In this document: positions 8,734 to 36,784 of the stretch, piece after piece
How the letters are laid out: the number at the start of each line of letters is the position of its first letter
Position numbering within the stretch: the stretch's first letter is position 1
Origin: Clostridia bacterium
GTDB lineage: Bacteria > Bacillota > Clostridia > Oscillospirales > CAG-272
Assembly: GCA_017504405.1 (NCBI GenBank)
Contig: JAFVRG010000001.1
Location: 7,586-71,585, forward strand
Length of the DNA: 64,000 nt
Direction: 5' to 3'
Notes under the pieces: model-generated
The model's input: only the letters and a program-made list of their open reading frames with translations
Databases searched by the model: none
Told to the model about the DNA's origin: nothing
Program-made: the position numbers and the translations under genes

Positions 8734-8762
8734 TTGACAGACGGCGGCTTTTATGTTACAAT
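8734..8762 (+). promoter_or_regulatory. Promoter of the 19-codon micro-ORF unit
   Basis: TTGACA (8734-8739), a 17-nt spacer ending in TATGT, and TACAAT (8757-8762). Confidence 0.45.
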
Positions 8763-8790
8763 AAAAGAACAATTAAAGGAGGTGGAGTTT

Positions 8791-8850
8791 ATGATTTTTC
8801 TAAGCTCTCTAAATCCTTTTCCGCCACTTGTGGCGTTTTCTATATATTAA
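8791..8850 (+). CDS. Candidate 19-aa hydrophobic micro-protein or leader peptide (MIFLSSLNPFPPLVAFSIY)
   Basis: The SD AAAGGAGGTG sits 6 nt upstream of the ATG at 8791. The stop at 8848-8850 abuts a terminator hairpin. The ORF is below the track's size cutoff. Confidence 0.3.
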   Translation: MIFLSSLNPFPPLVAFSIY

Positions 8851-8873
8851 GAGCGCGTATGCGCTCTTTTTTT
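8850..8873 (+). terminator. Intrinsic terminator after the micro-ORF
   Basis: agagcgc-gtat-gcgctct followed by TTTTTT. Confidence 0.55.
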
Positions 8874-8892
8874 GTATTTTTTTGGAAAAGTG

Positions 8893-8921
8893 TTGACTTT
8901 TACCCCCGTTTATTTTACAAT
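8893..8921 (+). promoter_or_regulatory. Promoter of beta-helix paralogue 1
   Basis: TTGACT (8893-8898), a 17-nt spacer and TACAAT (8916-8921). The TGTTGACTTTTAC context is shared with the promoter at 11114. Confidence 0.5.
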
Positions 8922-8951: not shown

Positions 8952-11024
8952 ATGTCAAACACCTTCTATTTATCAACAACGGGAAACGACGAAAACAGCG
9001 GCTCGAAGAGCGCACCGCTGAGAAGCTTTTCGGCAATTCTCGAAAAAACCCGAGCCCTGGACGGCGAGAAAACCGTAATAATCGAGGTAGGCAGATACCC
9101 GTTCAGAGAAACCCTCGAGCTTGACGCAAGGGATAACAACACCCACTTTGTTGCCGACGGAGAGGTGTTTTTCGACGGCGGAGTTGTGCTCGATAATTCA
9201 AAAATTGAGGATTACAAGGACGGAATAAAAAAGATTGACCTCTCCGACCTCGGCGTTGAATTCGGCGAGCTCGGCAACCGAGGCTTCCGCCGTGCGAGCA
9301 TAAATGCGCCCAGCGAATTTTTCCTTAACGGCGGAGCGCAGAAAATAGCGAGATACCCCAAAAACGGAATTATCCTCTATGAGGAAAATGACATAGTTGA
9401 TTCGGGAAGCAGACCCCGTGATAAGGACTACGGCTGCCGCCCCGCAACCCTGCGCCTCGACCAAGAAAAAATCAAAAAATGGGCAAATGCAAAGCACGCG
9501 TACCTGGGCGGCTATCCCAATCAATCGTGGGCTGACGAGTGCGTGAAAATCGCAAAAATAGATGCGGAAAACGGAACGGTTACAACCGAGCAGCCCCACC
9601 TTTTTAGCTATCAGTTCACGCATCACTCCGGCTACTTTGTAATAAACCTTCTGGAGGAGCTGACCGACGAGGGCGAGTACTACATTGATATTGACGAAAA
9701 GGTGCTCTACTTCAAGCCGTTCTCTGACGTTGACCTCAAAGCCGCAACACTTCAGGTATCCGTAATGGACAAGGTTATGGTGGCGATTGAGAACGCCGAA
9801 AATGTTTCCTTTGAGGGCATAACATTCGAAAACACACGCAACAGCGGCGTTTATATCGAGGGCGGTGACGGTTGCACGGTTAAAAACTGTGAATTCAGAA
9901 ACATGGGAATAATGGCAGTGCAAATCGGACAGGGCGCAACGCCCCTCGAGCACGGTCTTAACGACTGTCACGGCGAGCATGCCCCGAATGCAAAGCCCTT
10001 TGCTCCCGTATCACGTGAGGTTGGAAGCTGGAACGAATACCTTTACGAATTTGCGGCGTGGGATAACAACGGCGGTAAAAACCACTCGGTTGAGGGCTGT
10101 AAAATTCACGACTGCGGAGCGGGTGGAATATTGCTCGGCGGCGGCAACAGGAAAAGCCTCACACCCGCAAACAACAGAGTCCACAACTGCGAATTTTACT
10201 TAGTAAACCGTCTTGACAGAACATACCGTGCGGCGGTTAATATGATGGGTGTCGGAAACACCGTTTCTCATTGCTATATGCACGATTTGCCCTCTATGGC
10301 AATATGCCTGCACGGAAACGACCATATAATTGAGTTCAACGACATAACCAGAGCGTGCACCGAAACCTCGGATGCGGGCGCAATCTATATGGGCAGAGAC
10401 ATGAGCGAGGTTGGAAACGTATTCAGAAACAACTACATTCACGACCTTGAAAACACCATTGAAACAGGCCTTGGCGTTTGTGCTATTTACTTTGACGACT
10501 GGGATATATTCAATGCGGTTTACGACAATTTCTTCGTAAATATCAAGGGCGGCGGATTCTGCGTAATTCACCACACCTGCGGAGGATTTCTCTCCTTCCA
10601 CAATAATTTTGTGGTTGACTGTGTGCCCGGTATTCAGCCCGATAACAAGAGTAACTCGTACATCTATATGCACAGAGACCTTTTGGCTATGAAGCGTGTA
10701 CATACTGTTGACGAAAACGACGTCGGCGGCGTTGACATAACCTCTCCTGTATGGCGTGAAAAATACCCCTACCTCTACGACGTATACAAAAACGATGCCC
10801 GTCCCGAGTGGATGTACTACAACAACGCCCTGCTCTACCACAAGTACGATTGCTTTGTAGATGCGAAAAACGGCGACTTCACGCAGATAGACGGCTACCG
10901 TGAGAAATTCTGGCGTGACGAGTACGACTGGCAGAGACGTACCGACGTAATAATGGGCTACGAAAACGATCTGGTTCACCCTCACAGGGTTGATTTCAAA
11001 TCAATTGGTCTTATCAAGGACTAA
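8952..11024 (+). CDS. Right-handed parallel beta-helix protein, tandem paralogue 1 (690 aa, no signal peptide)
   Basis: ORF-track frame 8655..11024 trimmed to the ATG at 8952 (AAAAGGAG SD). The N-terminus FYLSTTGNDENSGSKSAPLRSF is the common cap of pectate-lyase-fold proteins. PbH1-like repeats follow (VKNCEFRNMG, VEGCKIHDCGAGG, NRVHNCEF, NTVSHCYMHD). It is highly similar to the next two genes. Confidence 0.8.
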   Translation: MSNTFYLSTTGNDENSGSKSAPLRSFSAILEKTRALDGEKTVIIEVGRYPFRETLELDARDNNTHFVADGEVFFDGGVVLDNSKIEDYKDGIKKIDLSDLGVEFGELGNRGFRRASINAPSEFFLNGGAQKIARYPKNGIILYEENDIVDSGSRPRDKDYGCRPATLRLDQEKIKKWANAKHAYLGGYPNQSWADECVKIAKIDAENGTVTTEQPHLFSYQFTHHSGYFVINLLEELTDEGEYYIDIDEKVLYFKPFSDVDLKAATLQVSVMDKVMVAIENAENVSFEGITFENTRNSGVYIEGGDGCTVKNCEFRNMGIMAVQIGQGATPLEHGLNDCHGEHAPNAKPFAPVSREVGSWNEYLYEFAAWDNNGGKNHSVEGCKIHDCGAGGILLGGGNRKSLTPANNRVHNCEFYLVNRLDRTYRAAVNMMGVGNTVSHCYMHDLPSMAICLHGNDHIIEFNDITRACTETSDAGAIYMGRDMSEVGNVFRNNYIHDLENTIETGLGVCAIYFDDWDIFNAVYDNFFVNIKGGGFCVIHHTCGGFLSFHNNFVVDCVPGIQPDNKSNSYIYMHRDLLAMKRVHTVDENDVGGVDITSPVWREKYPYLYDVYKNDARPEWMYYNNALLYHKYDCFVDAKNGDFTQIDGYREKFWRDEYDWQRRTDVIMGYENDLVHPHRVDFKSIGLIKD

Positions 11025-11173: not shown

Positions 11174-13264
11174 ATGACAGTCTTCTACTTATCCCCAACG
11201 GGAAACGACAAAAACAGCGGCTCGAAGAGCGCACCGCTGAGAAGCTTTGCGTCAGTTCTCGAAAAAGCCCGTGCGCTCGACGGCGAGAAAACCGTAATAA
11301 TCGAAGCAGGCAGATATTTGTTCAGAGAGACCCTCGAGCTTGACAAAAGGGATAACAATACACACTTTGTTGCCGACGGTGAGGTGTATTTTGACGGTGG
11401 AGTTGTGCTCGATAATTCAAAAATTGAGGATTTTAAGGACGGAATTAAGAAAATAGACCTCTCCGACCTCGGTGTCGATTTCGGCGAGCTCGGCAACCGA
11501 GGCTTTCGCCGTCCGTACGTAAATGCACCCAGCGAGCTTTTTATAAATTCAACGGCTCAGAGCCTCGCCCGTTACCCCAAAAAAGGAATTATAAACTACC
11601 TTGAGAACGACATAGTCGATTCGGGCAGCAGACCCCGTGATAAGGACTACGGCTGTCGCCCCGCAACTCTGCGCCTCGACGGCGAGAAAATCAAAAGGTG
11701 GGCGAATGCAAAGCACGCATACCTTTGCGGTTATCCCAGTCAATCCTGGGCTGACGAGTGCGTAAAAATCGCAAAAATAGATGTAGAAAACGGCACGGTT
11801 ACAACCGACGAGCCTCACCTTTTCAGCTATCAGTTCACGCACCACTCGGGCTACTTTGTAGCAAATCTTTTGGAGGAGCTGACCGACGAGGGCGAGTACT
11901 ACATTGATATTGACGAAAAGGTGCTCTACTTCAAACCGTCAGCTGACGTTGACACAGAAGCCGCAACGCTTCAAATTTCGGTTATGGACAGTGTTATGGT
12001 AGCAATTGAGGGAGCAAGCAACGTTTCCTTTGATGGCATAACCTTCGAAAACACCCGTTCAAGTGCTATTTATATCGAGGGTGGCGACGGCTGTGTGATT
12101 AAGAACTGCGAATTCAGAAACATAGGAACTCTCGCAATTCAGATAGGACAGGGGGCATCCCCTCTCGAAAGCGGGCTGAACGACTGTCACGGCGACCATG
12201 CGCCGAATGCAAAATCCTTCCATCCCATATCACGTGAGATGGGTAGCTGGGCAGAATATATCTACGAGTTTGCCGCCTGGGATAACAACGGCGGTAAAAA
12301 TCACTCGGTTGAGGGCTGTAAAATTCACGACTGCGGAGCGGGTGGAGTTTTGCTCGGCGGCGGAAACCGCAAGAAGCTCATCCCCGCAGGCAACCGAGTC
12401 TACAACTGTGAATTCTGGTCGGTAAATCGACTCGAAAAGACAAACAAGCCCGCCGTTCACGTAACGGGTGTGGGCAATACCGTGGCTCACTGTCTCATCC
12501 ACGACCTGCCTGCAATGGCGGTATGCCTGCACGGAAACAACCATACAATTGAGTTCAACGACATACACCACGTCGTAACCGAGGCGTCCGACTCGGGCGC
12601 AGTCTGTATGGGCAGAGACATGAGCGAGATTGGACACGTTTTCAGAAACAACTACATACACCACCTCAAAAACGCTGTTGAAACCGACCTCGGCGTATGC
12701 GCTATGTATTTTGACGATTGGGATATTTTCAACACGGTATACGACAACTTCTTCTATCACATAGAGGGAGGAGGATTCGGAGTCGTGCATCACACCTGCG
12801 GAGGACTGCTCTCATTCCACAACAACTTCATTATCGACTGTGTACCGGGTATAAATCCCGATAATATGAGCAACTCATATATCCGTATGCACCGTGACCC
12901 CACGGCAATGAAGCGTGTGCACACGGTGGACGATAACGACCTCGGCGGCGTTGACGTAACCTCACCCCTCTGGCGTGAAAAATACCCATACCTCTACGAC
13001 GTCTACAAAAACGATGCACGTCCCGAGCGGGCGTATTACAACAACCTGCTCGTTTACGGCAAGTATGATGCGTTTGTAGATGCCAAGAACGGTGATTTCA
13101 CTCAGGCGGCATGGTACGGCGCACCCTCTCACAGGGACGAATACGACTGGCAGAGGCGCACCGACGTGGTTATGGGCTATGAGGACGACCTCGTACCGCC
13201 TCACAGGGTTGATTTCAAATCCATAGGTCTTATTAAAAAACAAAATCTTACCTCTAAAACATAG
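11174..13264 (+). CDS. Right-handed parallel beta-helix protein, tandem paralogue 2 (696 aa, no signal peptide)
   Basis: Colinear with paralogues 1 and 3 and the most divergent of the three. AAGGAGAGG SD. Confidence 0.8.
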   Translation: MTVFYLSPTGNDKNSGSKSAPLRSFASVLEKARALDGEKTVIIEAGRYLFRETLELDKRDNNTHFVADGEVYFDGGVVLDNSKIEDFKDGIKKIDLSDLGVDFGELGNRGFRRPYVNAPSELFINSTAQSLARYPKKGIINYLENDIVDSGSRPRDKDYGCRPATLRLDGEKIKRWANAKHAYLCGYPSQSWADECVKIAKIDVENGTVTTDEPHLFSYQFTHHSGYFVANLLEELTDEGEYYIDIDEKVLYFKPSADVDTEAATLQISVMDSVMVAIEGASNVSFDGITFENTRSSAIYIEGGDGCVIKNCEFRNIGTLAIQIGQGASPLESGLNDCHGDHAPNAKSFHPISREMGSWAEYIYEFAAWDNNGGKNHSVEGCKIHDCGAGGVLLGGGNRKKLIPAGNRVYNCEFWSVNRLEKTNKPAVHVTGVGNTVAHCLIHDLPAMAVCLHGNNHTIEFNDIHHVVTEASDSGAVCMGRDMSEIGHVFRNNYIHHLKNAVETDLGVCAMYFDDWDIFNTVYDNFFYHIEGGGFGVVHHTCGGLLSFHNNFIIDCVPGINPDNMSNSYIRMHRDPTAMKRVHTVDDNDLGGVDVTSPLWREKYPYLYDVYKNDARPERAYYNNLLVYGKYDAFVDAKNGDFTQAAWYGAPSHRDEYDWQRRTDVVMGYEDDLVPPHRVDFKSIGLIKKQNLTSKT

Positions 13265-13314: not shown

Positions 13315-15387
13315 ATGTCAAACACCTTCTATTTATCCAAAAAAGGAAACGATAAAAACAACGGTGGGAAGAGCGCACCGCTGAGAAGCTTTTCTGCAGT
13401 TCTTGAAAAAACCCGTGCGCTCGACGGCGAGAAAACCGTAATAATTGAGGCGGGCAGATATTTATTCAGAGAAACCCTTGAGCTTGATGCAAGGGATAAC
13501 AACACACACTTTATCGCTGACGGTGAGGTGTATTTTGACGGCGGAATAATCCTTGACAATTCAAAAATCGAGGATTATAGGGACGGTATCAAGAAAATTG
13601 ACCTTTCATATCTTGGCATAGAGCTTCACGGGCTTGGCAACCGAGGCTTCCGCCGTGCGTATATAAATGCACCTACCGAATTTTTCGTTGGCGGTGTGGC
13701 GCAGAAAATCGCCCGCTACCCCAAAAACGGCGTAATCAATTATGAGGAGAAGGATATAGTTGACTGCGGCAGTACGCCGATAGACGGCGACTACGCCTGC
13801 CGTCCTGCAGTTTTGCGCCTTGACGGTGAGAAAATCAAGAAATGGGCAGGCGCAAAGCACGCATATCTCGGCGGTTACCCTAAGCACGCTTGGGCTGATG
13901 AGTGCGTAAAAATTGCAAAAATAGATGCAGAAAACGGCACGGTTACAACCGAGCAGCCGCACCTTTTCGGCTATCAGTTTACGCACCATTCGGGCTATTA
14001 TGTTGTAAATCTCTTAGAGGAGCTGACCGACGAGGGCGAATACTATATCGACATTGACGAAAATGTGCTCTATTTCAAGCCATCAGCTGACGTTGACCTC
14101 GAAACCGCAACGCTTCAGATTTCCGTAATGGACAAGGTTATGGTAGCAATTGAGAACGCCGAAAACGTTTCCTTTGAGGGCATAACATTTGAAAACACCC
14201 GTAACAGCGGCGTTTATATCGAGGGCGGCGACGGCTGCACCGTAAAGAATTGCGTTTTCAGAAATATGGGTATCCTTGCCGTTCAGATAGGACAGGGCGC
14301 AACGCCGCTTGAGCACGGTCTCAACGACTGTCACGGCGCTCATTCGCCGTTGGCGAAGCCGTTTAAGCCTCTGTCCCGAGAAATGGGAAGCTGGCACGAA
14401 TACATTTACGAATTTGCCGCTTGGGATAACAACGGCGGCAAAAATCACTCTGTTGAGGGGTGTAAGATTTACGATTGCGGAGCGGGCGGAATATTGCTCG
14501 GCGGCGGCAACAGGAAAAGCCTCACACCCGCAAACAACAGAGTCCACAACTGCGAATTCTGGTCCACCAACCGCCTCGACAAAACCTACAAGGGCGCTGT
14601 CAATATGATGGGTGTCGGCAATACCGTATCTCATTGCTATATGCACGATTTACCCGCCTTTGCAATCTATCTGCACGGAAACGACCACACAATCGAATTT
14701 AACGATATAACGAGGGTATGTATCGAGACCTCGGATTCAGGCGCAATTTATATGGGCAGAGATATGAGCGAGGTTGGAAACGTATTCAGAAACAATTACA
14801 TTCACGACCTCGAAAACACCATCGAAACAGGGCTTGGCGTTTGCGCAATTTACTTTGACGACTGGGATATATTTAACGCCGTTTACGACAACTTTTTCGT
14901 AAACATCAAGGGCGGCGGCTTCTGCGTAATCCATCACACCTGCGGAGGGCTGCTCTCATTCCACAACAACTTTATCGTTGACTGCGTGCCCGGAATTCAG
15001 CCTGATAACAAGAGCAATTCATACATCTATATGCACCGAGACCTTTTGGCTATGAAGCGTGTGCATACGGTTGACGAAAACGACCTCGGCGGCGTTGACG
15101 TGACCTCACCTATCTGGCGTGAGAAATACCCCTATCTCTACGAAACCTACAAAAACGATTACCGTCCCGAGTGGATGTACTACAACAACGCACTGCTCTA
15201 CCATAAGTACGACTGCTTTGTGGATGCAAGGAACGGCGATTTCACGCAAATCGACGGCTTCCGTGAGAAATTCTACCGTGACGAATACGACTGGCAGAGA
15301 CGTACTGACGTAATAATGGGCTACGAGAACGACCTCGTTCACCCCCACAGGGTTGATTTCAAATCCATAGGTCTTATCAAGAAATAA
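13315..15387 (+). CDS. Right-handed parallel beta-helix protein, tandem paralogue 3 (690 aa, no signal peptide)
   Basis: Colinear with paralogues 1 and 2. Only 50 nt and no terminator separate it from paralogue 2, so the two are probably co-transcribed. Confidence 0.8.
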   Translation: MSNTFYLSKKGNDKNNGGKSAPLRSFSAVLEKTRALDGEKTVIIEAGRYLFRETLELDARDNNTHFIADGEVYFDGGIILDNSKIEDYRDGIKKIDLSYLGIELHGLGNRGFRRAYINAPTEFFVGGVAQKIARYPKNGVINYEEKDIVDCGSTPIDGDYACRPAVLRLDGEKIKKWAGAKHAYLGGYPKHAWADECVKIAKIDAENGTVTTEQPHLFGYQFTHHSGYYVVNLLEELTDEGEYYIDIDENVLYFKPSADVDLETATLQISVMDKVMVAIENAENVSFEGITFENTRNSGVYIEGGDGCTVKNCVFRNMGILAVQIGQGATPLEHGLNDCHGAHSPLAKPFKPLSREMGSWHEYIYEFAAWDNNGGKNHSVEGCKIYDCGAGGILLGGGNRKSLTPANNRVHNCEFWSTNRLDKTYKGAVNMMGVGNTVSHCYMHDLPAFAIYLHGNDHTIEFNDITRVCIETSDSGAIYMGRDMSEVGNVFRNNYIHDLENTIETGLGVCAIYFDDWDIFNAVYDNFFVNIKGGGFCVIHHTCGGLLSFHNNFIVDCVPGIQPDNKSNSYIYMHRDLLAMKRVHTVDENDLGGVDVTSPIWREKYPYLYETYKNDYRPEWMYYNNALLYHKYDCFVDARNGDFTQIDGFREKFYRDEYDWQRRTDVIMGYENDLVHPHRVDFKSIGLIKK

Positions 15388-15411
15388 AAACCGAACATTT
15401 ATGGCCAAAAC

Positions 15412-15619: not shown

Positions 15620-18352
15620 ATGAAAAAGAAAATCCTAAGTTTACTACTCATACTTGCAACAGTAGCGGCGCTACTGCCCGCAATTGCTCTCGTTTCCTTT
15701 GCGTCGGGAGATGAATACACTCCCGATTATGAGGACTATGAGAGCCTGTGGGTGCAGGACGGCTTGTCATCCTTTGTCGATATGACGAATATGACAGGTA
15801 CCGACGATGCCCGTCTCGTTACGGTTGACGGTTCAACCTACGTGCAGATTAAGGACGGAGCAAACGCAGGTAAGTATTATCTTCTTGCAGGCGAGGCTTC
15901 CGTAAAGGACGGCAAGCTGCATCTTTCCACCGCAGAGGATCCCTCAGCAGCAGGCGAGTGGTACAAGTCAGAGGGAGTTATGTTTGGAAACGTATATAGC
16001 TATGACGGCTCCGCCATGACTGCTGGAACTGACGCATCGGTTGTCAGAAACGAGGCGAAAAACAACGCCTACACCGTTGACTACAATGCTTACGTTGCCG
16101 GAATTACATACGCAGACGGAACAGACGCAGGAATAAATATATTCTCCAAGCTGATTTCAGGCCCTTACAGCATCGGTTGCTTTAACTACTTCCCGTCGAA
16201 CACAGGAATTAATTTCTGTTGGAGCTTTGGTAATAGAACTACGGCAATCGACAGAAATGTATTTTTCAGCACTAATATCGTCTATGACGGCAGAATTGTT
16301 CTCAGAGATAACAACGATGCAAAGAAAACCCAGGGCGATTCATACCATATGGCACTGACAGTAGGCTTTGACGAGAGTGCCGGAACAGCATCCTTCATGC
16401 CGGTAACCAACGGAGCTGTCAGCAGCTTCTCATGGAGTGCGCTTGCTGCGAGTGAGCTCAACAACACGAGAATGTCGGCATCAGCTTCCAATCTCCTGCT
16501 GTCCTCGACATCACAGGAATTCCATTTTATTCGTGTTTATAACCGTGCCCTCACCCGTGAAGAGGTTGCTAAAAACCACTTTGCCGACCTTGTTTATTAC
16601 TACGGCGTTGACCTGAGAAGCTACGACCTCTCAGCTATGAGTGAGGATTTCTATAACAGCTTCACAAAATACGATATTGGTTCTACCGACAAGGAAGCTC
16701 TTGCAAAGACGGTAAGAGATGAATACTATAAGGAGCAAAATCTCGACCTCTATTACGATGACGGTCATTTGATGGCGTTTGTTGACGTAACCGACAACGA
16801 TAACAACAATCTGGTCAGAATTTCCCCCGTAAACGACAGCACCGCCGCAGGCTACCACAACTACATAAAGATAATTGACGGAGACCTCGCAGGCAAGTAC
16901 TATATGACGGGTGTATCGAGCAACATTCAGACAACGAGTCTTCAGGGCATAGTTGCCGCAAGCTCAAACATATCCCACGGAAAATCAACCTACAAAATTC
17001 ACGTAGGAACGAGCTTTGAAGAGAGCGTTATCTTTACCAACACGGGAGCTATCGGCGCACTTGACGGTTATATGAATCCCGCAAGCTCCGAGGGCTTCAC
17101 AATAGAGGCGGCAACCAAATTTATAACCTCTATTCATAGTGGCGTTGCATTCGCAACCATGATGTTCAATGCGAGCAAGTCCTCAGACAATCATTTGGCA
17201 GGAATTGCAAACAGACACAGTGGCTCGGCATCGGCTCTCATTATGGGCACTTACGGCAGTGTTGAGGCTCAGTCCGGTATGGGCACAATTGGCGACGACC
17301 TCTCGGCAACAGTTGCTTCACACGTAAGGTATGATGATTTTACCGATTACAACGCAATCCGCAGTGCAATCGCCCTCACGCCTAAAAATGATGCTAACGC
17401 AAATTCGGGATTTGTAAAAATAGCAGAAAGCAGTGCGGCGGCTGCAACCTGGAACACTCTCACCAATATCGGCGAAAATGACGACATTGTTGTAAATGCG
17501 GCAGGCCACAGCTACTACTATATAAGAACCTATGACTGCGAGCTCTCCGAGGCGCAGATGAAGCAGAATCTGCTCGCAGATATTGCACGTTATAACGCAA
17601 TGGATATGAGCGATTTCCGAGGTCTCTCCGATGCTGAAAAGGCTGTTGTTTACGACACGGCTCTTGCATACGGAGTTGGCGATGCAGGAGCAAAAGAGGC
17701 AATCGAGGCAAAAATTGCTGAGGTTGCATCGCAGAAAGACGCAGTTGAGGCAGCGGCTACTGAGGCACTCACCTTTGTGGGCTATCAGGCAAGGCTGCAC
17801 GGCAACGTCGGCGTAAGAAGCGTATTCAACCTCGATACGACGAAGCTTGGCGATTTTGAGCTTGTAGCATACGGCGCTATGGTCGGTATGGCTAAGACGG
17901 GCACAGATTTTGATACCTATACGGTAAATTACGACGGCGAGAATATCACGTCGGCAAATGCAGCAGTAATCAGCTCACTCGACAGTGGCTTCAAGACGTT
18001 TGGTACGGCAGAAAAGGCGCACATCCTCAAAAAGAGCGAGGGACTTGATAACTACTATATGTTTGCGTACACCGTTGATTACATAAACGGCTCGATAGAC
18101 GAGAACGGAGCAATAGACGGTCAGTCGTACATAGAAGCAAACAAGGATACCGAAATGTTCTTCCGTGCATTTGTAATTGTTGAAGCAAACGGCATTTACT
18201 ATACGGTTTACGCTGACGGAGCGAGCGAAAGCTATGACAGCACCAGTGTTTCTCTTACCGAGATTTCCGAATACTACAAGGCGTACAACGAAGGCGAATT
18301 TGCCGACAATGTATGTATAAAGGCCGTCGTTGGCAACAGCGACGAGGAATAA
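15620..18352 (+). CDS. Secreted 910-aa protein with two LamG/ConA-like modules and a conserved C-terminal domain (family member A)
   Basis: Signal peptide MKKKILSLLLILATVAALLPAIALVSFASG. Modules end in FIRVYNRALTREEVAKNHFADLVYYYG (about 16521-16605) and YIRTYDCELSEAQMKQNLLADIARYN (about 17531-17615). These match the terminal strand of Laminin_G_3-type domains (vRiYnraLs.eEi). The C-terminal domain FVGYQARLHGNVGVRSVF...EMFFRAFVIVE is shared with the next two large genes. Confidence 0.75.
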   Translation: MKKKILSLLLILATVAALLPAIALVSFASGDEYTPDYEDYESLWVQDGLSSFVDMTNMTGTDDARLVTVDGSTYVQIKDGANAGKYYLLAGEASVKDGKLHLSTAEDPSAAGEWYKSEGVMFGNVYSYDGSAMTAGTDASVVRNEAKNNAYTVDYNAYVAGITYADGTDAGINIFSKLISGPYSIGCFNYFPSNTGINFCWSFGNRTTAIDRNVFFSTNIVYDGRIVLRDNNDAKKTQGDSYHMALTVGFDESAGTASFMPVTNGAVSSFSWSALAASELNNTRMSASASNLLLSSTSQEFHFIRVYNRALTREEVAKNHFADLVYYYGVDLRSYDLSAMSEDFYNSFTKYDIGSTDKEALAKTVRDEYYKEQNLDLYYDDGHLMAFVDVTDNDNNNLVRISPVNDSTAAGYHNYIKIIDGDLAGKYYMTGVSSNIQTTSLQGIVAASSNISHGKSTYKIHVGTSFEESVIFTNTGAIGALDGYMNPASSEGFTIEAATKFITSIHSGVAFATMMFNASKSSDNHLAGIANRHSGSASALIMGTYGSVEAQSGMGTIGDDLSATVASHVRYDDFTDYNAIRSAIALTPKNDANANSGFVKIAESSAAAATWNTLTNIGENDDIVVNAAGHSYYYIRTYDCELSEAQMKQNLLADIARYNAMDMSDFRGLSDAEKAVVYDTALAYGVGDAGAKEAIEAKIAEVASQKDAVEAAATEALTFVGYQARLHGNVGVRSVFNLDTTKLGDFELVAYGAMVGMAKTGTDFDTYTVNYDGENITSANAAVISSLDSGFKTFGTAEKAHILKKSEGLDNYYMFAYTVDYINGSIDENGAIDGQSYIEANKDTEMFFRAFVIVEANGIYYTVYADGASESYDSTSVSLTEISEYYKAYNEGEFADNVCIKAVVGNSDEE

Positions 18353-29295: not shown

Positions 29296-31680
29296 ATGGT
29301 AAAACACGAGATATACGTAAGCAAAACGGGCGATGATAAAAATATAGGCTCAAAGGCTTCGCCCGTAAGAACTATATCGGAGGCAATAAGGCGGGCTGCC
29401 ACGGCAGACCGTTGGTTTCCGTTCAATATATACGTAAGAGGCGGAAATTATCACGAAACGCTTTCCTTCGGCGCTCTTGACTCTCGAAAAAACAAGGGCT
29501 GCGAGCTCACAATTTCTGCGTACAAAAACGAAAAGGTTTGCGTACACGGAGGATACGAGATTGAGGAAAGCAGGATTAAAAAGGTCACTGACGAGTCAAT
29601 TCTCTCCCGTATTATAAACGAGGGAGCACGAGATAAAATCTATGCGATAGATTTATCGGATAAAAAGCAGTATCTTTTCCCTAACAGGCAAACCTTCCAG
29701 TACGGAGCGTGCAGAACCGCACTTTTCCGCAACAATAAGATGATGGAGCCTGCAAGATATCCGAAAAAGCTATCGACTGACCGCACGACTGCGGGCGAAT
29801 ATATGCACGCAACTAAATACGATTACCCCGTATCGGATGACGGAAAGATGAGAAATGTATCTATGACCGTTTTGGAGGATTCGCTGTTCGAGCGCATGGA
29901 AAAGTGGGATAAATCTGTATTAAAGGATTTGTGGGCAGACGGATATTTTTCTCATACCTGGTGGGATGAATACTGCCGTATAATATCCTTCGACAAGAAG
30001 AAAAAGCAGATAAGAACCAACGATGACGCTATGTTTTATACCGCCCCCAACGGCGTTCTGCTGCCTAACCTCAACGTGGGAAGGTTTTATCTCTTCAATA
30101 TTTTTGACGAGCTGAGCGAGGAAAATGAATTTTTCATCGACTATAAGAGCGGTATCGTTTACGTTTATTCCGAAACACCTATCAAAACCGGCGACATCGT
30201 TTTGGGTACGGAGACGAACCACTTGCTCACCATAGACCGTTCGGTCGGCATCAACATCAAAAACATTGATTTTGCATATTCACAGGGGTATCTTGTTCAG
30301 ATGTGGGATGCCAGCTGTTGCTCGCTTGACGGTTGCAATCTTTACTGCTCCGGATACGGCGCAGGGCGAATCAGCTACTCGAACAACATAACAATTAAAA
30401 ACGCAGTTGTTACGGAAACGACTGGGGGACTCTCCTTCAATGGCTGTGGAAACCTGCAAACCCTAACCGAATCCAACTGTGTGGTCGAAAACTGCATATT
30501 CCACGACGTATCAACCACCCATCGCTGTTACAACTCCTGCCTTGGGTCGGGCGTTGACTGTGTGGGAATTAAGTTTTTGCACTGTAAGCTGTACAATGCG
30601 CCGCACATGCTCCTTTCATTGGGCTCATTCACCGAGGTTGCATACTGCGAATTTTTCAACGCCGCAAAGGACTCTGACGATTGCGCTGCAATCTATTGGG
30701 GCGCCCGCCCCGACACTGTCGGAAACGTAATTCACGACTGCTATTTCCACGACCTCGGAAACGTATGGCAGACCTGGGGTACGAATGCGATTTATCAGGA
30801 CGATATGGGAACAGGTGCAGATATATACAACAATATATTTGTAAACGTTGCCTCGCCGGATAAATCCTCAGCCATAAAGGGCGCATCCTTCCATCGCTCG
30901 CATAACAACATTTTTATAGGCCCCAATCCTCCCGACGGAGGATACTTGTACGGCCTTTATGACTGGATATTCAGGGCTTCAATTGACTTTGACGACGATG
31001 CTCCCGCAATAGGTCTTGGCACAAATGTGCCAAAATGGCACCGAATGCTCGAAAGAGTAGGCTTCTTCACGCCCGAGTGGCGCAAAAAGCTGAAGGGAAC
31101 ACTCTGGCAAAAAATGTACGATCCTCTCGATGAGAGCAAGATTGCGCAGTTAAAGCTCTATCAGGCATCTCTCGAGGGCGAGGAGCCGGAGCTGAAAAAT
31201 GCAAAGGTGGCGATGAAGCTCGCAGAGCTTCTGTTCGTCGGAAAATATGCTGACGGCACTCCGATAGAGGGAAATATTTTTGATGTAATAAAGGAAAAAT
31301 TTCCGAGCTATTACCAAAAGGCACTTACGGACAGTGAGGGCGCAGGAGAAGTGTTCAGAATAAACCGCATAAAGCATATTGTTATGGAGCTCATATGGTT
31401 CGGCGAAATCATGCCCGAATACTACCAGACTCTTGACGGCAACCTTATCATAGGAAGCAAAAACTATGCAGGCGAGCTGAATGATAATGACGTAATGCGT
31501 CATCTAAACCATTTCAATAACCTTAATATGGAAAATGATAAGATGCCTGACGGAAATTCATTGTTTGTTGATTCTGAGGGCGGTGATTATACAATGACCG
31601 AGGAAGGACTCGCATTTGTCAGGAGTAAAATCGAGGGCTTTGAGCCAATAGATTTTTCCAAAATAGGAGCCGGAAAATAA
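29296..31680 (+). CDS. Right-handed beta-helix protein (794 aa, no signal peptide)
   Basis: Cap motif HEIYVSKTGDDKNIGSKASPVRTISEAI. It shares the ARYPKK and FNIFDELSEENEFFIDYKSGIVYVY blocks with the other four beta-helix proteins. PbH1-like repeats include LDGCNLYCSG, IKNAVVTETTGG, VENCIFHDV and FLHCKLYNAP. Confidence 0.75.
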   Translation: MVKHEIYVSKTGDDKNIGSKASPVRTISEAIRRAATADRWFPFNIYVRGGNYHETLSFGALDSRKNKGCELTISAYKNEKVCVHGGYEIEESRIKKVTDESILSRIINEGARDKIYAIDLSDKKQYLFPNRQTFQYGACRTALFRNNKMMEPARYPKKLSTDRTTAGEYMHATKYDYPVSDDGKMRNVSMTVLEDSLFERMEKWDKSVLKDLWADGYFSHTWWDEYCRIISFDKKKKQIRTNDDAMFYTAPNGVLLPNLNVGRFYLFNIFDELSEENEFFIDYKSGIVYVYSETPIKTGDIVLGTETNHLLTIDRSVGINIKNIDFAYSQGYLVQMWDASCCSLDGCNLYCSGYGAGRISYSNNITIKNAVVTETTGGLSFNGCGNLQTLTESNCVVENCIFHDVSTTHRCYNSCLGSGVDCVGIKFLHCKLYNAPHMLLSLGSFTEVAYCEFFNAAKDSDDCAAIYWGARPDTVGNVIHDCYFHDLGNVWQTWGTNAIYQDDMGTGADIYNNIFVNVASPDKSSAIKGASFHRSHNNIFIGPNPPDGGYLYGLYDWIFRASIDFDDDAPAIGLGTNVPKWHRMLERVGFFTPEWRKKLKGTLWQKMYDPLDESKIAQLKLYQASLEGEEPELKNAKVAMKLAELLFVGKYADGTPIEGNIFDVIKEKFPSYYQKALTDSEGAGEVFRINRIKHIVMELIWFGEIMPEYYQTLDGNLIIGSKNYAGELNDNDVMRHLNHFNNLNMENDKMPDGNSLFVDSEGGDYTMTEEGLAFVRSKIEGFEPIDFSKIGAGK

Positions 31681-31869: not shown

Positions 31870-32895
31870 ATGATATATTCAAATGCAGATTTTTTCAACG
31901 TAGCAGAGCTAAGACCTACCGCCGACGGCGGATTTGATATGCTCAGATTCCCAAAGAGCGCATATAAGAATATGAAAAATATGGGTACTAAAATGTCGCA
32001 TATCGCCACCTGTACCGAGATACGCTTCGTAACCGATGCGGACGTTGTATGGGTAACCCTGATGAGCAAGACCTCGGACACCGAAATATTCCTCTATTCG
32101 GGCGATTACAAGCGTGACGTGTACCACCTCAAGGCAGGAGCGAAGCAAACGCTGACAATAGAGCCTATGTCTACCTTTAAGGGCAAGAGCGACGAGATGC
32201 TCGATTCGCCTATATACAGAAACCGCTATTCGCACAACGTATACAGGATAGTAATTCCCAATGCGTATATGACGTTTTATGAGATACGTGCGCTTAACGG
32301 CACGTATATGCGTGCCCCTGTAGCAGAGGAGCTGCCGAAGAAAAAAATGCTTTTGTACGGCTCGTCGATTTCGCACGGCTGTTGGAGCGAAAATTACACC
32401 CTCGGCTACGTAGGCGTTGCAGCCGAGAAGCTGGGACTCGACCTGCTCAATAAGGGAATGTCGGGAAGCTCAAGATTTGAAAAGGAAACAGCCGATTACC
32501 TCGCAGGTGAGGATTTCGACATTGCCCTCATGGAGCTGGCGACAAACATGACTAACCCAAGCGATTATACCGTTGACGAGGTTTTGGCTGCGGTTGAGTA
32601 TACCATGCGCACTGTATGTGAGAAAAACCCCGACAAGCCTATCGTTTGTATGTCGCCGTTCATTCACATGTGGGGAAAAGAAGCCGAAAATGACAGGGAA
32701 AATCACAAGCTGCTCGTCAAGGAAAAATTGGACAGTATGATAGCTTCGCTTCCTTATAAGAACCTCAGATATTTCGATTCCGAAAGGGTGTTTGATAAGG
32801 CATACCTTTGCTGCTGGGACTTCTGCCACCCGTCGGATTTCGGCCATATCGATATGGGATACAATCTCGTAAATCTTCTTAAGGATTTGATATAA
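31870..32895 (+). CDS. SGNH/GDSL-type esterase with an N-terminal beta-sandwich-like domain (CE2-like architecture)
   Basis: Block I LLYGSSISHG, block II GMSGSS, block III ELATNM and block V CHPSDFGH (DxxH). No signal peptide. Confidence 0.7.
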   Translation: MIYSNADFFNVAELRPTADGGFDMLRFPKSAYKNMKNMGTKMSHIATCTEIRFVTDADVVWVTLMSKTSDTEIFLYSGDYKRDVYHLKAGAKQTLTIEPMSTFKGKSDEMLDSPIYRNRYSHNVYRIVIPNAYMTFYEIRALNGTYMRAPVAEELPKKKMLLYGSSISHGCWSENYTLGYVGVAAEKLGLDLLNKGMSGSSRFEKETADYLAGEDFDIALMELATNMTNPSDYTVDEVLAAVEYTMRTVCEKNPDKPIVCMSPFIHMWGKEAENDRENHKLLVKEKLDSMIASLPYKNLRYFDSERVFDKAYLCCWDFCHPSDFGHIDMGYNLVNLLKDLI

Positions 32896-32963: not shown

Positions 32964-33000
32964 CGCTTTTTGAAAAAAGCTTAGCAAAAACTTTTATAAA
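32964..33000 (-). repeat. Intergenic repeat, copy 1b
   Basis: The reverse complement reads tttataaaagtttttgctaagcttttttcaaaaagcg. Confidence 0.7.
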
Positions 33001-33010
33001 ATGAAAAAGT

Positions 33011-33043
33011 AAAAGTGAGGCACAAAAGTGCCTCACTTTTTTT
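33011..33043. terminator. Bidirectional intrinsic terminator between convergent genes
   Basis: AAAA-gtgaggcac-aaaa-gtgcctcac-TTTTTTT. Confidence 0.65.
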
Positions 33044-33070
33044 GGTTTTGCCGAAATACGGCAGCCCCTC

Positions 33071-36000
33071 TTAATCCTTTACACCGGAGTCACCCTCAGG
33101 TGCTTCAACCGTGTAAATTATATCCATAGCGAGCTTAACGGTTTCGGAATCAAGTCCTGCAAAGCCGTTATCCCTCTGGCGTGAAGCTACGTAGTAGAAG
33201 CTCCTTGCGCTCAGAGTCTCGCCTCCAACCGTATCGGTCAGCGAGCCGTCCTCATTGTCGGCAGGCTCATCCGAGTATACGTATATCGTTCCGACAACAT
33301 CGCCGTCCTCATCGGTAATCAGAGCGTATGCTGCGAATACGTATGCCTCGTCCGCAGAGGACACGGCAGAGTATGCAAGCGATGACGTAAATTTACCGTC
33401 GGTTACCTTGTTTACACTCTCGCCAAGCACGGTATTCTTCACGGCATATGAGAGGTCATAGGTGAGAGTATCGCCGCCTGCCACAAGCTCCGAGAGCTTA
33501 GCATACAGGGTGCCTATCTCTACATTATAGCCCGCCTCTGCAAGCGCTGAGAGTGCATCTGTGGACACACCGTAGATTCCGAGCAGAACAGCTGCTCCGT
33601 TATCATTGCCAATCGAGTGACCGCCATAGGTTATAAGGCTGCCGACTCCGCCGCCTGCGGTATAGGAAACGGATATCTGCTTTTCCGTGTATCCTGCGCT
33701 GACGGTAAAGGTCGCCTTCTTCTGTTCGAAATCAAGGCTTATTGCGTCAAGGGTGGGAGCAACTATATCAACAGCACCCGTCGTTTTTACGTAGTCCTCT
33801 ATGTATTTCGAGATTGCGGAGAGGATTGCCTCCTTCGCCTTCGCCTCGCTCAGCGAGGAGATGAGGTCGATAGAAAGGCTTGCCGCCTCTATTGCCTCTG
33901 CGAATACTAAAACGGGGTCGTTTTTATGAGTTGTTTCTACCGTTGTCATGGGGTAAAGGTATGCGTTTGTTGCCGCCTCTATTGCCATTGCCAGCATATC
34001 GTGGCTGACCGAGCCGGGCTGAGTTGAGTTATCGGCAAGAATTTCCGTTTTGGAAATATCGTAACCGAACAAGGTCTTTACCCACAGCAGTGCAGATGCA
34101 AATCTCGCAACCTCATAATTCAGGTGAACGTCATTCTGGCGGTAAAGAACATTTCCGTTTTTGCCGTTGTTCTGGCTCATTGAGCCGAGATACGAGGTTT
34201 TGAGGTTTTCGAGCATCGACGAGCCCGAAATAACGGTGTCTATAACCTTATCTCCGACAATTTCCTCGCCGTCCTCGTCAAGCTCGTAGAGGGTGGGAAG
34301 GAAGTCGCTGTAAAACGTCCTCATATTGCTGAGCCTGCTCTGCGCATCGTAGGGGGCGAGCCAATGGTTAAACCATACGATTGGCGCATCAATGTCCAAA
34401 TCCCTGAACAGGCGGACAAATTTCTGCATATCCGATGCCAGCTGCTCATGCTTGCCCGAATCAAACGCCTCGTTATAATCCTGAAGAACTATTATATCCC
34501 AATCAAACGTCAGATACTTCTGAACGTTAGTCATCTGGTTAAATCCAAAGGTTTTTTCAACTCCGCTGATGTACACAAACGCATTCGTGTCGGTAGAGTC
34601 GGTGAGTGAGGTTTCGTAATGCGTGTTGAGCGTTCTGCCTCCGTAGGTCATTTCAACAAAAACGATTCTGTTGTCAGGGGCAAGCTCCTCTGTAATCGCC
34701 TTCAACCAATATCCGTCATCCACAGCTACTCCGCTACCAACCGAGTCGTTGGTGAGGCTGTTTCCTATCGCCAGAACGTTTCCGCTCATTATCTTCGACT
34801 CATAGCCAAACGCCTCTGCCCAGGCTTTTCCGAACGAGGCAATTGCAACGTAGAGCTCCATATCCTCAGAGCAGTCATCAAACGCATCCTTTGCGATATA
34901 CACAGTACCGTTACCGATATCAATGTTATCGGCAATCTCTGCTCCGATAAACGCACCCTTGCCAATAGATGCTACCGAGTCGGCAACACGTGCGCTCTTC
35001 AGCTTTATCATATTGTTAAAGGCGTAAGAGCCAACGTGAGTTACGCCCTGGCAAACCTCGATATACTCTATCTCGTTTACGTATCCGTACTCATACCAAC
35101 GGGGTGTGAAGTACGCCTCGGCGGTATAGTCCATCATTTTTCCGTCGCCTATTATAAGCAGCCGTTTATCCTGCGTGTAGAGCCACGAGGTATCGTCGTT
35201 TATAGGCGCAGAATCGGTTATCAGGCTGTATTCAAATTCATATCCCTTCTCAGCTGCCGAGGCAAACGCGTTTATCATCTTCGAGCCTGCGGGCACGTAG
35301 TACCTTGCCCTCTCGCTCTGCGACATCGGTTGCAGGCAGGCGGCAAGGTGTGAGGTAAGAGAAGCCGTCGTGCTCATAACAACAACGGTTTTCAGATTGG
35401 GGCATGCGCCGAACATATTTAAGCTACCCGTTATTGTCGAGGGGATATAGATATATTCAAGAGCAAAGCACTGCTGCGCTACCTGCGCATTCGCAATACT
35501 TGTTACACCCTCGGGTATTACTATCGACTTCAGAGCGTGGCAATAGCCAATCGGAGACAGTGTTCTCACAGTCGAGGGATATACTATTTCTTCAAGGGCA
35601 TAATATCTTTCAATAAGATATATGTATCCGCTTGACGGTGCTATCGAGGTGATGCCCTCGCCAAACACGAGCTTTCTTATTTTACCGCTCCACTCGTTAT
35701 GCCAAGGAGCGGTCTCTCTCGTCATTGTCAGCGCGCCCGAGCCGTTCACGGTCAACGTCAATTCCTCATCAATAAACCATGTGAACGCACTTCCCGCACT
35801 GCCGTCGGCAGAACAGGAGCCGGATGCGATAATCTCTGCCTCACCCTTCTCTGCCCACTTAGCAACCAGATGCACGTCATCCTCTACTGCCGAGGTAAAA
35901 TCCCAGAGCAGTCCGTCGTGATACCAGCCGCTGAACACCCAGCCCGAGCGCTCAGGCGCACCGGGGTCCTTAACCTTATCACCCATCGAAAGAAGCTGGG

Positions 36001-36784
36001 ACTCAAAGCTCTGTGCTCCGTCGGAGTCAAAGGACACGGTTAAAATTTCCGATGCGGACCTGTAACGGGCAACCAGATTCAAATCCTCGGTTACCTCGCC
36101 CGTGCTGAAATTCCATTTCGTATCGCCGTTGAACCAACCGATAAACAGCATTCCGTCCTTGCTGGGGGCGTCGGGCTCTGTTGCAAACGAGCCGTGGTCC
36201 ACCGTCTGGTCGGGGTATTCGCCTGCGCCGCCGGAATCAAAGCTTACCGTATGCTTGATTTCGGGGGGATTGTCTATTATCCACCTTGCCGTCAGAGTCA
36301 TATCCTCCTCTGCATAGTAGGCAGAAAAGCTCCATTTTTCCTCGCCGTTATACCAGCCGTCGAAGGTGTAGCCGTCCCTTGTGGGGTCTGCGGGCTTATC
36401 TATTTTTTGTCTGCCCGTTATTGAGAGCGTCGAGGTCGTATCACCGTTTTCAAAACCGCCGCCGTTGCAGTCAAAGGTTACAGTAGCCTTATTTTCCAAG
36501 GTCTCCTGCCACTTTGCTGTCAGAGTGATGTCCTCATTTACGTAATAGGACGAAAAGCTCCACTTTTCCTCGCCGTTATACCAGCCGTCAAAGGTGTAGC
36601 CGTCCTTTTGGGGATCCGTTGGCTTTGCCAGCTTTTCACCCTTATTCAGTGTGACAGCCGCAACCTCGCTGCCGCCGCCCGAGTCGAAGCTGACCGTAAC
36701 CGTCTCATCAGCACACGCAATTGCCATAGGCAACAGCATTGCAAAAACGAGCATCAGCGCCAGCACCTTGGATATTTTTTTCAT
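33071..36784 (-). CDS. Large surface protein (1237 aa) with four Listeria-Bacteroides (Flg_new) repeats, BspA-type leucine-rich repeats, an SGNH/DUF4886-like domain and a C-terminal beta-rich domain
   Basis: Signal peptide MKKISKVLALMLVFAMLLPMAIAC. Four copies of the pattern V(T/S)FDSGGG...P.(R/K)DGYTFDGWYNGEEKWSFS.Y...D(I/M)TLTA(K/R)W. The LRR_5-like stretch reads ITSIAPS...VRTLSPIGYCHALKSIVIPEGVTSIANAQVAQQCFALEYIYIPSTI. The SGNH-like block reads VLAIGNSLTNDS...IVLQDYNE. Confidence 0.75.
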   Translation of the reverse strand: MKKISKVLALMLVFAMLLPMAIACADETVTVSFDSGGGSEVAAVTLNKGEKLAKPTDPQKDGYTFDGWYNGEEKWSFSSYYVNEDITLTAKWQETLENKATVTFDCNGGGFENGDTTSTLSITGRQKIDKPADPTRDGYTFDGWYNGEEKWSFSAYYAEEDMTLTARWIIDNPPEIKHTVSFDSGGAGEYPDQTVDHGSFATEPDAPSKDGMLFIGWFNGDTKWNFSTGEVTEDLNLVARYRSASEILTVSFDSDGAQSFESQLLSMGDKVKDPGAPERSGWVFSGWYHDGLLWDFTSAVEDDVHLVAKWAEKGEAEIIASGSCSADGSAGSAFTWFIDEELTLTVNGSGALTMTRETAPWHNEWSGKIRKLVFGEGITSIAPSSGYIYLIERYYALEEIVYPSTVRTLSPIGYCHALKSIVIPEGVTSIANAQVAQQCFALEYIYIPSTITGSLNMFGACPNLKTVVVMSTTASLTSHLAACLQPMSQSERARYYVPAGSKMINAFASAAEKGYEFEYSLITDSAPINDDTSWLYTQDKRLLIIGDGKMMDYTAEAYFTPRWYEYGYVNEIEYIEVCQGVTHVGSYAFNNMIKLKSARVADSVASIGKGAFIGAEIADNIDIGNGTVYIAKDAFDDCSEDMELYVAIASFGKAWAEAFGYESKIMSGNVLAIGNSLTNDSVGSGVAVDDGYWLKAITEELAPDNRIVFVEMTYGGRTLNTHYETSLTDSTDTNAFVYISGVEKTFGFNQMTNVQKYLTFDWDIIVLQDYNEAFDSGKHEQLASDMQKFVRLFRDLDIDAPIVWFNHWLAPYDAQSRLSNMRTFYSDFLPTLYELDEDGEEIVGDKVIDTVISGSSMLENLKTSYLGSMSQNNGKNGNVLYRQNDVHLNYEVARFASALLWVKTLFGYDISKTEILADNSTQPGSVSHDMLAMAIEAATNAYLYPMTTVETTHKNDPVLVFAEAIEAASLSIDLISSLSEAKAKEAILSAISKYIEDYVKTTGAVDIVAPTLDAISLDFEQKKATFTVSAGYTEKQISVSYTAGGGVGSLITYGGHSIGNDNGAAVLLGIYGVSTDALSALAEAGYNVEIGTLYAKLSELVAGGDTLTYDLSYAVKNTVLGESVNKVTDGKFTSSLAYSAVSSADEAYVFAAYALITDEDGDVVGTIYVYSDEPADNEDGSLTDTVGGETLSARSFYYVASRQRDNGFAGLDSETVKLAMDIIYTVEAPEGDSGVKD

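Follow-up and report, generated by a model that had tools for sequence, protein, structure and literature searches.

The window considered here, a stretch of 64,000 nucleotides from contig JAFVRG010000001.1 (assembly GCA_017504405.1), derives from what is taken to be an uncultured Eubacteriales (Clostridia) bacterium of a gut or rumen-type metagenome, and harbors between housekeeping genes an island that encodes five beta-helix proteins (bH1 to bH5), three secreted giants (G1 to G3), two 45-residue peptides (pep1 and pep2), an SGNH esterase and a 1237-residue lipoprotein (Table 1). A first-pass annotation, made from the sequence alone, had proposed that this block corresponds to a single coherent and undescribed system for the recognition or processing of extracellular glycans. 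The genes listed in that annotation all exist, as judged from the open reading frames (ORFs) and their translations, with small corrections of coordinates: a start at 8655 (giving 789 residues) was an artefact of a stop-free, in-frame extension across a promoter region, and bH1 instead begins at 8952 with its own ribosome-binding site (RBS); position 8734, given as the beginning of the block, is not a gene boundary but the -35 box of the promoter of a tiny ORF; the start of G3 was moved to 23015; and the gene for the 1237-residue protein, described as divergent from the island, is convergent with it and is divergent only from a housekeeping HAD gene.

Table 1. Genes and features of the island and its upstream border, in window coordinates
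Feature	Position	Strand	Description
AXE1/CE7-like acetyl esterase	7396..8583	+	directly upstream of the island; outside the coordinates of the first-pass annotation
Tiny unit (promoter, RBS, 19-residue ORF, terminator)	8734..8868	+	place in the gene set uncertain
bH1	8952..11024	+	cytoplasmic GH141-like beta-helix protein, 690 residues; Pfam Beta_helix, E 2.6e-16; no signal peptide
bH2	11174..13264	+	cytoplasmic GH141-like beta-helix paralogue, 696 residues; Pfam Beta_helix
bH3	13315..15387	+	cytoplasmic GH141-like beta-helix paralogue, 690 residues; Pfam Beta_helix; candidate catalytic Asp474 and Asp515
G1	15620..18352	+	type-1 secreted giant, 910 residues
pep1	18369..18506	+	45-residue peptide gene; own RBS
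G2	18560..22630	+	type-1 secreted giant, 1356 residues
pep2	22648..22785	+	45-residue peptide gene
G3	23015..26410	+	type-2 secreted giant, 1131 residues
bH4	26412..29279	+	lipoprotein GH141-like beta-helix enzyme (predicted), 955 residues; Pfam Beta_helix
bH5	29296..31680	+	cytoplasmic GH141-like beta-helix protein, 794 residues; Pfam Beta_helix sub-threshold, E 4e-4
SGNH esterase (Lipase_GDSL_3)	31870..32895	+	341 residues, cytoplasmic; Pfam E 5.8e-16
Flg_new x4 / BspA-type LRR_5 / DUF4886 lipoprotein	33071..36784	-	1237 residues; Pfam

The five beta-helix proteins, which had been regarded as members of one family, are indeed all homologous by BLASTP: bH1, bH2 and bH3 are mutually 79-88% identical (88% for bH1 versus bH3), and bH4 and bH5 display 21-27% identity to those three proteins and to each other (E 1e-14 to 9e-36). 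The sequence blocks said to unite them, ARYPK/ARWPN and L.EL..EGEYYID...LYF, are found in five of the five. Inspection of the translations likewise agrees with the earlier assignments of export signals, according to which the giants are secreted, bH4 is lipid-anchored, and bH1 to bH3, bH5 and the SGNH esterase carry none: bH4 displays the lipobox VVAC, and bH1 to bH3 and bH5 have no hydrophobic N-terminus.

The nearest known family is glycoside hydrolase (GH) family 141, which comprises its founding member BT_1002 from Bacteroides thetaiotaomicron (PDB 5MQP), Xyn141E from Acetivibrio thermocellus and the Wf141 endo-fucanases. BT_1002 was the sole PDB sequence match of bH3, and the matched region covers the motif flagged in the first-pass annotation; with phmmer, E was 8.6e-6 for bH3 against BT_1002 and 0.032 for bH4, and bH5 gave no match. 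A profile built from 65 members of the family matched PDB entry 9RX2 at E 2.5e-25 and BT_1002 at E 1.1e-10, the latter mostly via the cap and motif region, and the Pfam model GH141_M, which describes the GH141 insertion domain, was detected in 24 of the 65. An AlphaFold2 model of bH3 (predicted local distance difference test, pLDDT, 94.8) was used in a Foldseek search, in which BT_1002 ranked first (E 1.4e-21, template-modeling score (TM) 0.57-0.67, approximately 680 columns), followed by GH120 XylC (PDB 3VST; E 1.7e-13, TM approximately 0.5) and then GH110, with K1 capsule lyase, RbmB and many tailspikes among the other fold matches.

In BT_1002, residues D523 and D564 are essential, and their equivalents in Xyn141E are D540 and D577 (PMC5593877, PMC10154630, PMC12786026). 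When residues 251-538 of BT_1002, taken from the HMMER alignment, were compared with the island proteins, the Asp of its HMYDVAGVY motif (D523) shared a MAFFT column with D474 of bH3, D565 of bH4 and D462 of bH5, and this Asp is invariant in bH1 to bH5. A second Asp lies 41 residues downstream (D515 in bH3), at the same spacing as that between D523 and D564, and is kept in bH3, bH4 and bH5 as well as in five bH4-like homologues. The likeness to GH141 extends over a right-handed beta-helix, an N-terminal cap, an inserted beta-sandwich that ends in GE[WY]Y.D...LYY (the insertion domain, residues 109-295 in BT_1002), a conserved pair of Asp residues approximately 41 positions apart (the second matched by spacing), the top fold match and a significant profile match; the extra blocks common to the five proteins correspond to this cap and to the end of this insertion domain. 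Unlike BT_1002, bH1 to bH3 and bH5 have no signal peptide, carry an extra 45-residue insertion (at approximately 330-375) and differ in their C-terminal region, and bH4 is a lipoprotein with a C-terminal extension of 300 residues. On the evidence of sequence and model, bH1 to bH5 are best regarded as distant members or relatives of GH141, with a probable hydrolase activity, and the statement that no GH family could be named for them is therefore superseded, being contradicted by the sequence, profile and fold matches to BT_1002, by GH141_M and by the Asp alignment.

Two further structures bear upon this assignment. Among solved structures, PDB 9RX2 (‘Parallel beta-helix repeat protein’, 717 residues) is nearest in sequence to the bH1-3 profile, and the match takes in the cap, the region of the GEW motif and the two Asp motifs, with a signal-peptide-like N-terminal offset in 9RX2; a literature search on 9RX2 returned no publication, and an eventual one may name the activity of the bH1-3 family. 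XylC of GH120 resembles the island proteins in that it is a beta-helix enzyme from a Firmicute with an inserted beta-sandwich, and we take it to be cytoplasmic as well, but no sequence-level match was found, and the GH141 signals are stronger.

The family to which bH1, bH2 and bH3 belong comprises approximately 300 clusters in a collection of 5.8 billion proteins (word-indexed search, E<=1e-5), the few named ones being labeled only ‘parallel beta-helix repeat protein’ or ‘hypothetical protein’, and its alignment consensus contains no signal peptides. Five genomic loci that harbor homologues of bH1-3 were read. In a Paenibacillaceae locus (L005/L006), the neighbors of the beta-helix gene are an AraC-type sensor/regulator, two ATP-binding cassette (ABC) permeases, a solute-binding protein and a GDSL esterase; in a second (L007), GH95 flanks the beta-helix gene on both sides; in a third (L022), GH2, GH101-like, GH95 and GH2-like genes and an overlapping Lipase_GDSL_3 gene are followed by a two-component AraC system and an ABC transporter; in a fourth (L024), a two-component system, ABC permeases and a GDSL esterase lie beside the beta-helix gene; and in the last (L023), the beta-helix gene is isolated, with a GH31 gene nearby. 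None of the five contains a giant. Such contexts correspond to Gram-positive polysaccharide utilization loci (PULs), in which homologues of bH1-3 are accompanied by an ABC transporter, an AraC-type or two-component regulator, GH95, GH2 and GDSL esterases. In addition, a bH1-3-like beta-helix and Lipase_GDSL_3 are naturally fused in one protein of 1062 residues (P0066).

The SGNH esterase of the island itself matches PF14606 (Lipase_GDSL_3) above the cut-off, with YGSSISHG and DFCHP readable in its sequence, and possesses an N-terminal beta-rich domain of approximately 150 residues; the protein also matches PDB 4lhs (E 9e-14). In these features (the PF14606 match, the N-terminal domain, and the GSSIS and D..H blocks) it resembles SGNH carbohydrate esterases with an N-terminal beta-sandwich, of the kind termed CE2-like, a likeness of domain layout in which the PDB relative 4lhs is itself uncharacterized. 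It has no hydrophobic N-terminus, and is preceded by its own promoter at 31769. A first module of the island would thus comprise bH1 to bH3, bH5 and the SGNH esterase, the role of which, as suggested by sequence and gene contexts, is most likely the intracellular deacetylation and hydrolysis of imported, probably acetylated oligosaccharides; the corresponding transporter and regulator would have to be encoded elsewhere. By analogy, the GH95 and GH29 neighbors of the homologues and the known activities of GH141 (alpha-L-fucosidase, xylanase or endo-fucanase) hint at glycans that contain fucose or galactose. Where in the cell the proteins act, in what order the events occur and what the substrate is are all inferred, both here and for the surface cassette described next.

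The second module is a surface cassette, in which a type-1 giant, a 45-residue peptide, a type-2 giant and a bH4-like enzyme are encoded in that order. A tblastn map of the fetched loci, together with a reading of their neighborhoods, demonstrated that this arrangement recurs: it is found in the window, on contigs L013 and L016 of the metagenome-assembled genome GCA_045593885.1, at L018/L019, and on scaffold_40 of the same sample as the window. The spacers are short throughout (14-18 nucleotides from giant to peptide, and 1-17 from type-2 giant to enzyme); in the window, which carries one extra giant-peptide unit beside the four-gene cassette, pep1 lies 17 nucleotides past the G1 stop, pep2 18 past the G2 stop, and bH4 1 past the G3 stop. 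Scaffold_40 (ENA ERZ28653803; L009 and L012, record positions 1-39024), which was obtained from the same sample as the window scaffold (XIEF21-1_SAMN15830007 scaffold_113), is occupied by an array of more than 40 kb that extends to the contig end and alternates giants of 1153-1411 residues, three 45-residue peptide genes and four bH4-like lipoproteins of 996-1007 residues, the latter being 58-71% identical to one another and approximately 33% identical to bH4. AraC or LacI regulators adjoin giants at L011, L018 and L020. No homologues of bH1-3, bH5, the SGNH esterase or the Flg_new protein were found by tblastn beside the cassettes elsewhere, within the available 10-kb flanks.

All of the bH4-like proteins carry a lipobox followed by a poly-Thr linker, which in bH4 is of poly-Thr/Pro type. 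Across the cassette lipoproteins compared (26412-26540 in the window; L009, L012 and L013), the N-termini contain a lipobox of the SL[VI]AC type and then 7-20 Thr with Pro or Ser, a run that has the look of a long stalk, perhaps glycosylated, spanning the cell wall.

The three giants are paralogues by BLASTP, and the translations of all three begin with signal peptides. G1 consists of a signal peptide, two modules of approximately 300 residues that resemble concanavalin A (ConA) or LamG domains, helical linkers and a conserved C-terminal beta-sandwich domain; G2 has three modules and the C-terminal domain; and G3 has two modules, a helical region of approximately 200 residues and the C-terminal domain. 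No giant matched Pfam, even at E<=10, or NCBIfam, and a PDB sequence search with the module profile gave no match. A word-indexed homologue search returned only five matches for G1, and an exhaustive profile search with the modules recovered 359 representative clusters, many of whose members reach 2000-4500 residues and combine multiple copies of the module with the C-terminal domain seen in the giants. For the identification of the modules as LamG, a direct Pfam match is lacking, and what stands is a transitive hidden Markov model link through one relative, P0254, in which the module profile matches residues 44-198 (E 5.8e-15) and overlaps Laminin_G_3 at 68-180 (E 2e-7), together with weak ConA-like fold matches. 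Laminin_G_3 was found in one of 28 distant relatives. In such distant relatives the modules are fused to AXE1/S9-type esterase, GDSL, DUF4886, LRR_5, dockerin or beta-helix domains; one protein of 1663 residues (P0186) joins a giant-type module to a GH141-like beta-helix domain, and another of 2718 residues (P0138) is a multi-module giant with an AXE1/S9-type esterase.

The peptides encoded by pep1 and pep2 are 87% identical. Only six clusters of this peptide were found in the 5.8 billion proteins, and each one examined sits after a giant. Among the copies, synonymous differences reach 40-100% of sites and non-synonymous differences 1-16%, giving ratios of non-synonymous to synonymous change (dN/dS) of 0.02-0.15; with synonymous sites near saturation, the peptide is therefore encoded by a real gene under strong constraint, whose conservation does not stem from recent conversion. 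Neither a signal peptide nor a Cys is present. The C-terminal domain of the type-1 giants is as conserved as the peptide, which could be a subunit that binds this domain, a private chaperone or a signal. A precursor of a ribosomally synthesized and post-translationally modified peptide was considered and rejected, as the island encodes no radical-SAM protein, cyclase, protease or ABC exporter, and the peptide offers no modifiable core (no Cys) and belongs to no Pfam or NCBIfam precursor family. No fusion of peptide and giant occurs among the 280 proteins retrieved.

The start of the peptide, MKKYxKP, is a very common small-ORF pattern, with at least 600 stretches in JGI metagenomes matching MKKY[NE]KP. 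The only distant JGI relative, in a genomic context that differs from the cassette, is a 50-residue peptide at 10001-10153 of locus L021 (JGI Ga0265293_10000261), which is 40% identical and shares only the N-terminal half beginning MKKYEKPTLEVV; it lies between genes for a secreted 375-residue protein and a 286-residue protein with a P-loop-like GHGKST motif, with an ABC exporter nearby.

In the mechanism proposed for the cassette, the secreted giants, each with two or three ConA/LamG-like modules, would bind a polymer at the cell surface, the membrane-tethered GH141-like enzyme, on its poly-Thr stalk, would cleave it, and the peptide would act as a strongly constrained accessory subunit or signal. 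A comparison may be drawn with Bacteroidota PULs, in which a surface glycan-binding protein is paired with a surface endo-glycanase lipoprotein, and with cellulosome scaffolds that bear carbohydrate-binding modules; the logic would be shared, in that putative non-catalytic, lectin-like binders are encoded beside a predicted lipid-anchored glycanase, and one distant relative of the giants carries a dockerin. Unlike those systems, the cassette has no SusC/D, cohesin or S-layer homology (SLH) domain, its binders are multi-module giants of 900-1400 residues with a private C-terminal domain, it includes a conserved 45-residue peptide gene, and its host is presumably a monoderm Firmicute. For the giant, peptide and lipoprotein part, no family match, named homologue or paper was found in the libraries and collections searched, and a search of the literature on LamG/beta-helix systems in the rumen returned nothing relevant, so that for this part the earlier description of the system as undescribed is borne out.

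The third module would be the separate 1237-residue lipoprotein (lipobox AIAC; four Flg_new repeats, LRR_5 and DUF4886 by Pfam), which adds binding and esterase-type modules.

The transcriptional organization, predicted from consensus scans for promoters and terminators and from visual reading, also divides the block. At least six units are predicted (the tiny ORF; bH1; bH2-bH3; G1-pep1-G2-pep2; G3-bH4-bH5; the SGNH esterase; and the minus-strand gene), with predicted terminators at 8849, approximately 15407, 22820, approximately 31698 and 33011. These include a terminator-like hairpin after bH3 (approximately 15407-15455), a strong terminator after pep2 (22820-22845), and a bidirectional terminator (33011-33040) common to the island and the convergent 1237-residue gene. 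Within the first modules of the giants, a tract in G2 (18676-19005) displays 92-100% DNA identity to its counterpart in G3 (approximately 23128-23457), including a perfect run of 111 nucleotides, and the flanks of this tract are 45-70% identical; the difference between tract and flanks supports the ongoing gene conversion among paralogues that the first-pass annotation had reported.

The interpretation that best accommodates these observations, and that is probably correct, is that the block is a composite, compositionally native carbohydrate-active island of independently distributed modules, each built around a predicted, distant GH141-like beta-helix glycoside hydrolase. Of its elements, those demonstrated here are the homology and the fold, the conservation of two Asp residues, the gene pairings that recur, the fusions, the purifying selection and the conversion tract. 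The carbohydrate-processing theme of the earlier proposal is retained, as is its division into extracellular and intracellular proteins. The domain fusions in relatives, which link giant modules to a GH141-like domain, giant modules to esterases or DUF4886/LRR, and a beta-helix to an SGNH domain, support a common glycan-processing theme and not an obligate unit. A more specific version, in which the cassette is a previously undescribed Gram-positive surface machine that captures and depolymerizes polysaccharide, has been amplified into diverged arrays, and employs the peptide as an integral subunit or shared coordinating signal, is put forward tentatively; a single rumen-type sample would then contain no fewer than five or six pairs of enzyme and giant, and the cassette would be a functional analogue of the multiple surface modules of Bacteroidota PULs.

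Several observations weigh against the composite, GH141-centered interpretation. Identity between the beta-helix proteins and BT_1002 is only approximately 15%, the equivalence of the second Asp to D564 is one of spacing only (the BT_1002 alignments end at residue 538), and the beta-helix fold may also fit lyase or other chemistry. In the Gram-positive utilization loci described above, homologues of bH1-3 have a transporter and a regulator beside them, and the island has neither. As to the putative glycan binding by the giants, the model of G1 is poor (pLDDT 65), and its Foldseek matches, all of them ConA-like jelly rolls, are weak (E approximately 1e-4 to 1e-5, TM approximately 0.15). The peptide matches nothing in Pfam or NCBIfam, E<=10 included. 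The boundary between modules is blurred by bH5, which starts 17 nucleotides past the bH4 stop and appears, from that spacing, to be co-transcribed with G3 and bH4. Finally, a tetranucleotide comparison does not settle whether scaffold_40 and the window share a genome.

Among other explanations, one holds that the enzymes remodel the bacterium's own glycans, trimming capsule, extracellular polysaccharide or wall polysaccharide, with the giants serving as matrix or biofilm scaffolds. The long helical stalks and unknown C-terminal domain of the giants, the presence of K1 capsule lyase and RbmB among the fold matches, and an island without a transporter would all suit such a role; however, the top fold matches are catabolic GH141 and GH120 enzymes, cytoplasmic paralogues reside in nutrient-uptake operons elsewhere, and no glycosyltransferase, flippase or polymerase is encoded nearby, and this explanation is judged unlikely.

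The proposal that the entire 28 kb forms one integrated and co-inherited extracellular system for glycan recognition and processing, with ten genes obligately together, is judged quite unlikely. It fails when co-distribution is considered, since independent distribution of its parts is already seen in part: giants are absent from the loci with bH1-3 homologues, the 10-kb flanks of the other cassettes contain no homologues of bH1-3, bH5, SGNH or Flg_new, and predicted terminators separate the transcription units within the island itself. To its credit, the genes sit together on one strand, with housekeeping genes on either side, the narrow gap between bH4 and bH5 suggests co-transcription of a surface and a cytoplasmic enzyme, and most of the domain types are joined pairwise by fusions.

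Still less probable is a role for the giants as adhesins or toxin-like receptor binders acting on host or neighboring cells, with the peptide as a pheromone or immunity-like factor and the glycosidases as accessories. This view appeals to Foldseek matches of G1 to the HcN and NTNHA domains of botulinum neurotoxin and to the lectin module of PilC pilin, to paralogue diversification and gene conversion of a kind typical of surface-variation families, and to the strong conservation of a peptide that has no signal peptide; yet those matches, obtained with a low-confidence model, are generic jelly rolls of low TM, domains of toxin, translocation or protease type are absent, and the giants go closely with a glycosidase-like lipoprotein and have relatives fused to dockerin and to domains of the carbohydrate-active enzyme (CAZyme) type. 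Origin from a prophage or another phage element (whose depolymerases would be tailspike-like, alongside fiber proteins), or a role as an anti-phage defense island, suggested by the many tailspikes among the beta-helix fold matches and by one marginal PHROG tail-spike match for bH4 (E 1.3e-4), was rejected as highly improbable, as a search of 2.9 million viral contigs found no relatives of the giants, PHROG gave no matches for the giants, the peptide, bH3 or bH5, PADLOC returned none, and the island has a native composition and no phage structural or integrase genes.

That composition was assessed by tetranucleotide usage, in which the correlation between island and flanks (r = 0.90) gives no sign of recent acquisition. 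The runs of genes on either side of the block encode a U32 peptidase, maf, nth, rnmV and the CE7-type AXE1 esterase upstream, and a HAD phosphatase, ribF, prmA and rsmE downstream. A Pfam scan of the island ORFs (8.6-36.8 kb) detected no transporter (ABC, phosphotransferase system or major facilitator superfamily), regulator or glycosyltransferase domain, as the first-pass annotation had stated, and the first regulator gene met, of PucR type, lies at 40477, past four housekeeping genes. The start of the AXE1/CE7-like gene overlaps the end of rnmV, and the esterase therefore looks translationally coupled to the housekeeping operon; it may be part of the theme of the island, as relatives of the giants carry AXE1/S9-type esterase domains. 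Approximately 8 kb downstream, on the minus strand at 44506-48210, GH2 and raffinose-synthase-like (Raffinose_syn) genes represent further CAZymes in the neighborhood, and a tRNA gene is found at 54646-54718 of the window.

Rfam recognized no known RNA in the island, including the tiny unit at its upstream end. That unit comprises a near-perfect sigma70-like promoter (TTGACA-17-TACAAT), a strong RBS and a 19-residue ORF at 8791-8850 (MIFLSSLNPFPPLVAFSIY); a hairpin lies within it at 8822-8835, its terminator spans 8849-8868, and a second promoter (8893) and bH1 follow immediately downstream. The unit might act as a leader-peptide attenuator or represent a small RNA.

What these observations would mean for the biology of such organisms differs between the parts of the island. 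The cytoplasmic part is a known kind of sugar-utilization module without its usual transporter, and if the GH141-like assignment holds, it represents a sizeable, unannotated and mostly cytoplasmic clade of enzymes, often paired with an SGNH esterase and GH95, that offers a target for new glycosidase specificities in gut and rumen Firmicutes. The fusions P0186, P0066 and P0138 provide Rosetta-stone links between the gene types of the island. The surface cassette appears, by analogy, to represent an undescribed form of the arrangement in which a binding protein and an anchored glycanase go together, here with a conserved peptide besides. Monoderm bacteria lack SusC/D and often lack cellulosomes; if the surface-capture reading is true, the cassette would add a new architecture for surface glycan capture in such bacteria, and would provide a function for a family of secreted proteins of 900-4500 residues, without a Pfam domain, that comprises approximately 360 representative clusters. 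The finding extends the biology of CAZymes and PULs, and leaves current concepts standing.

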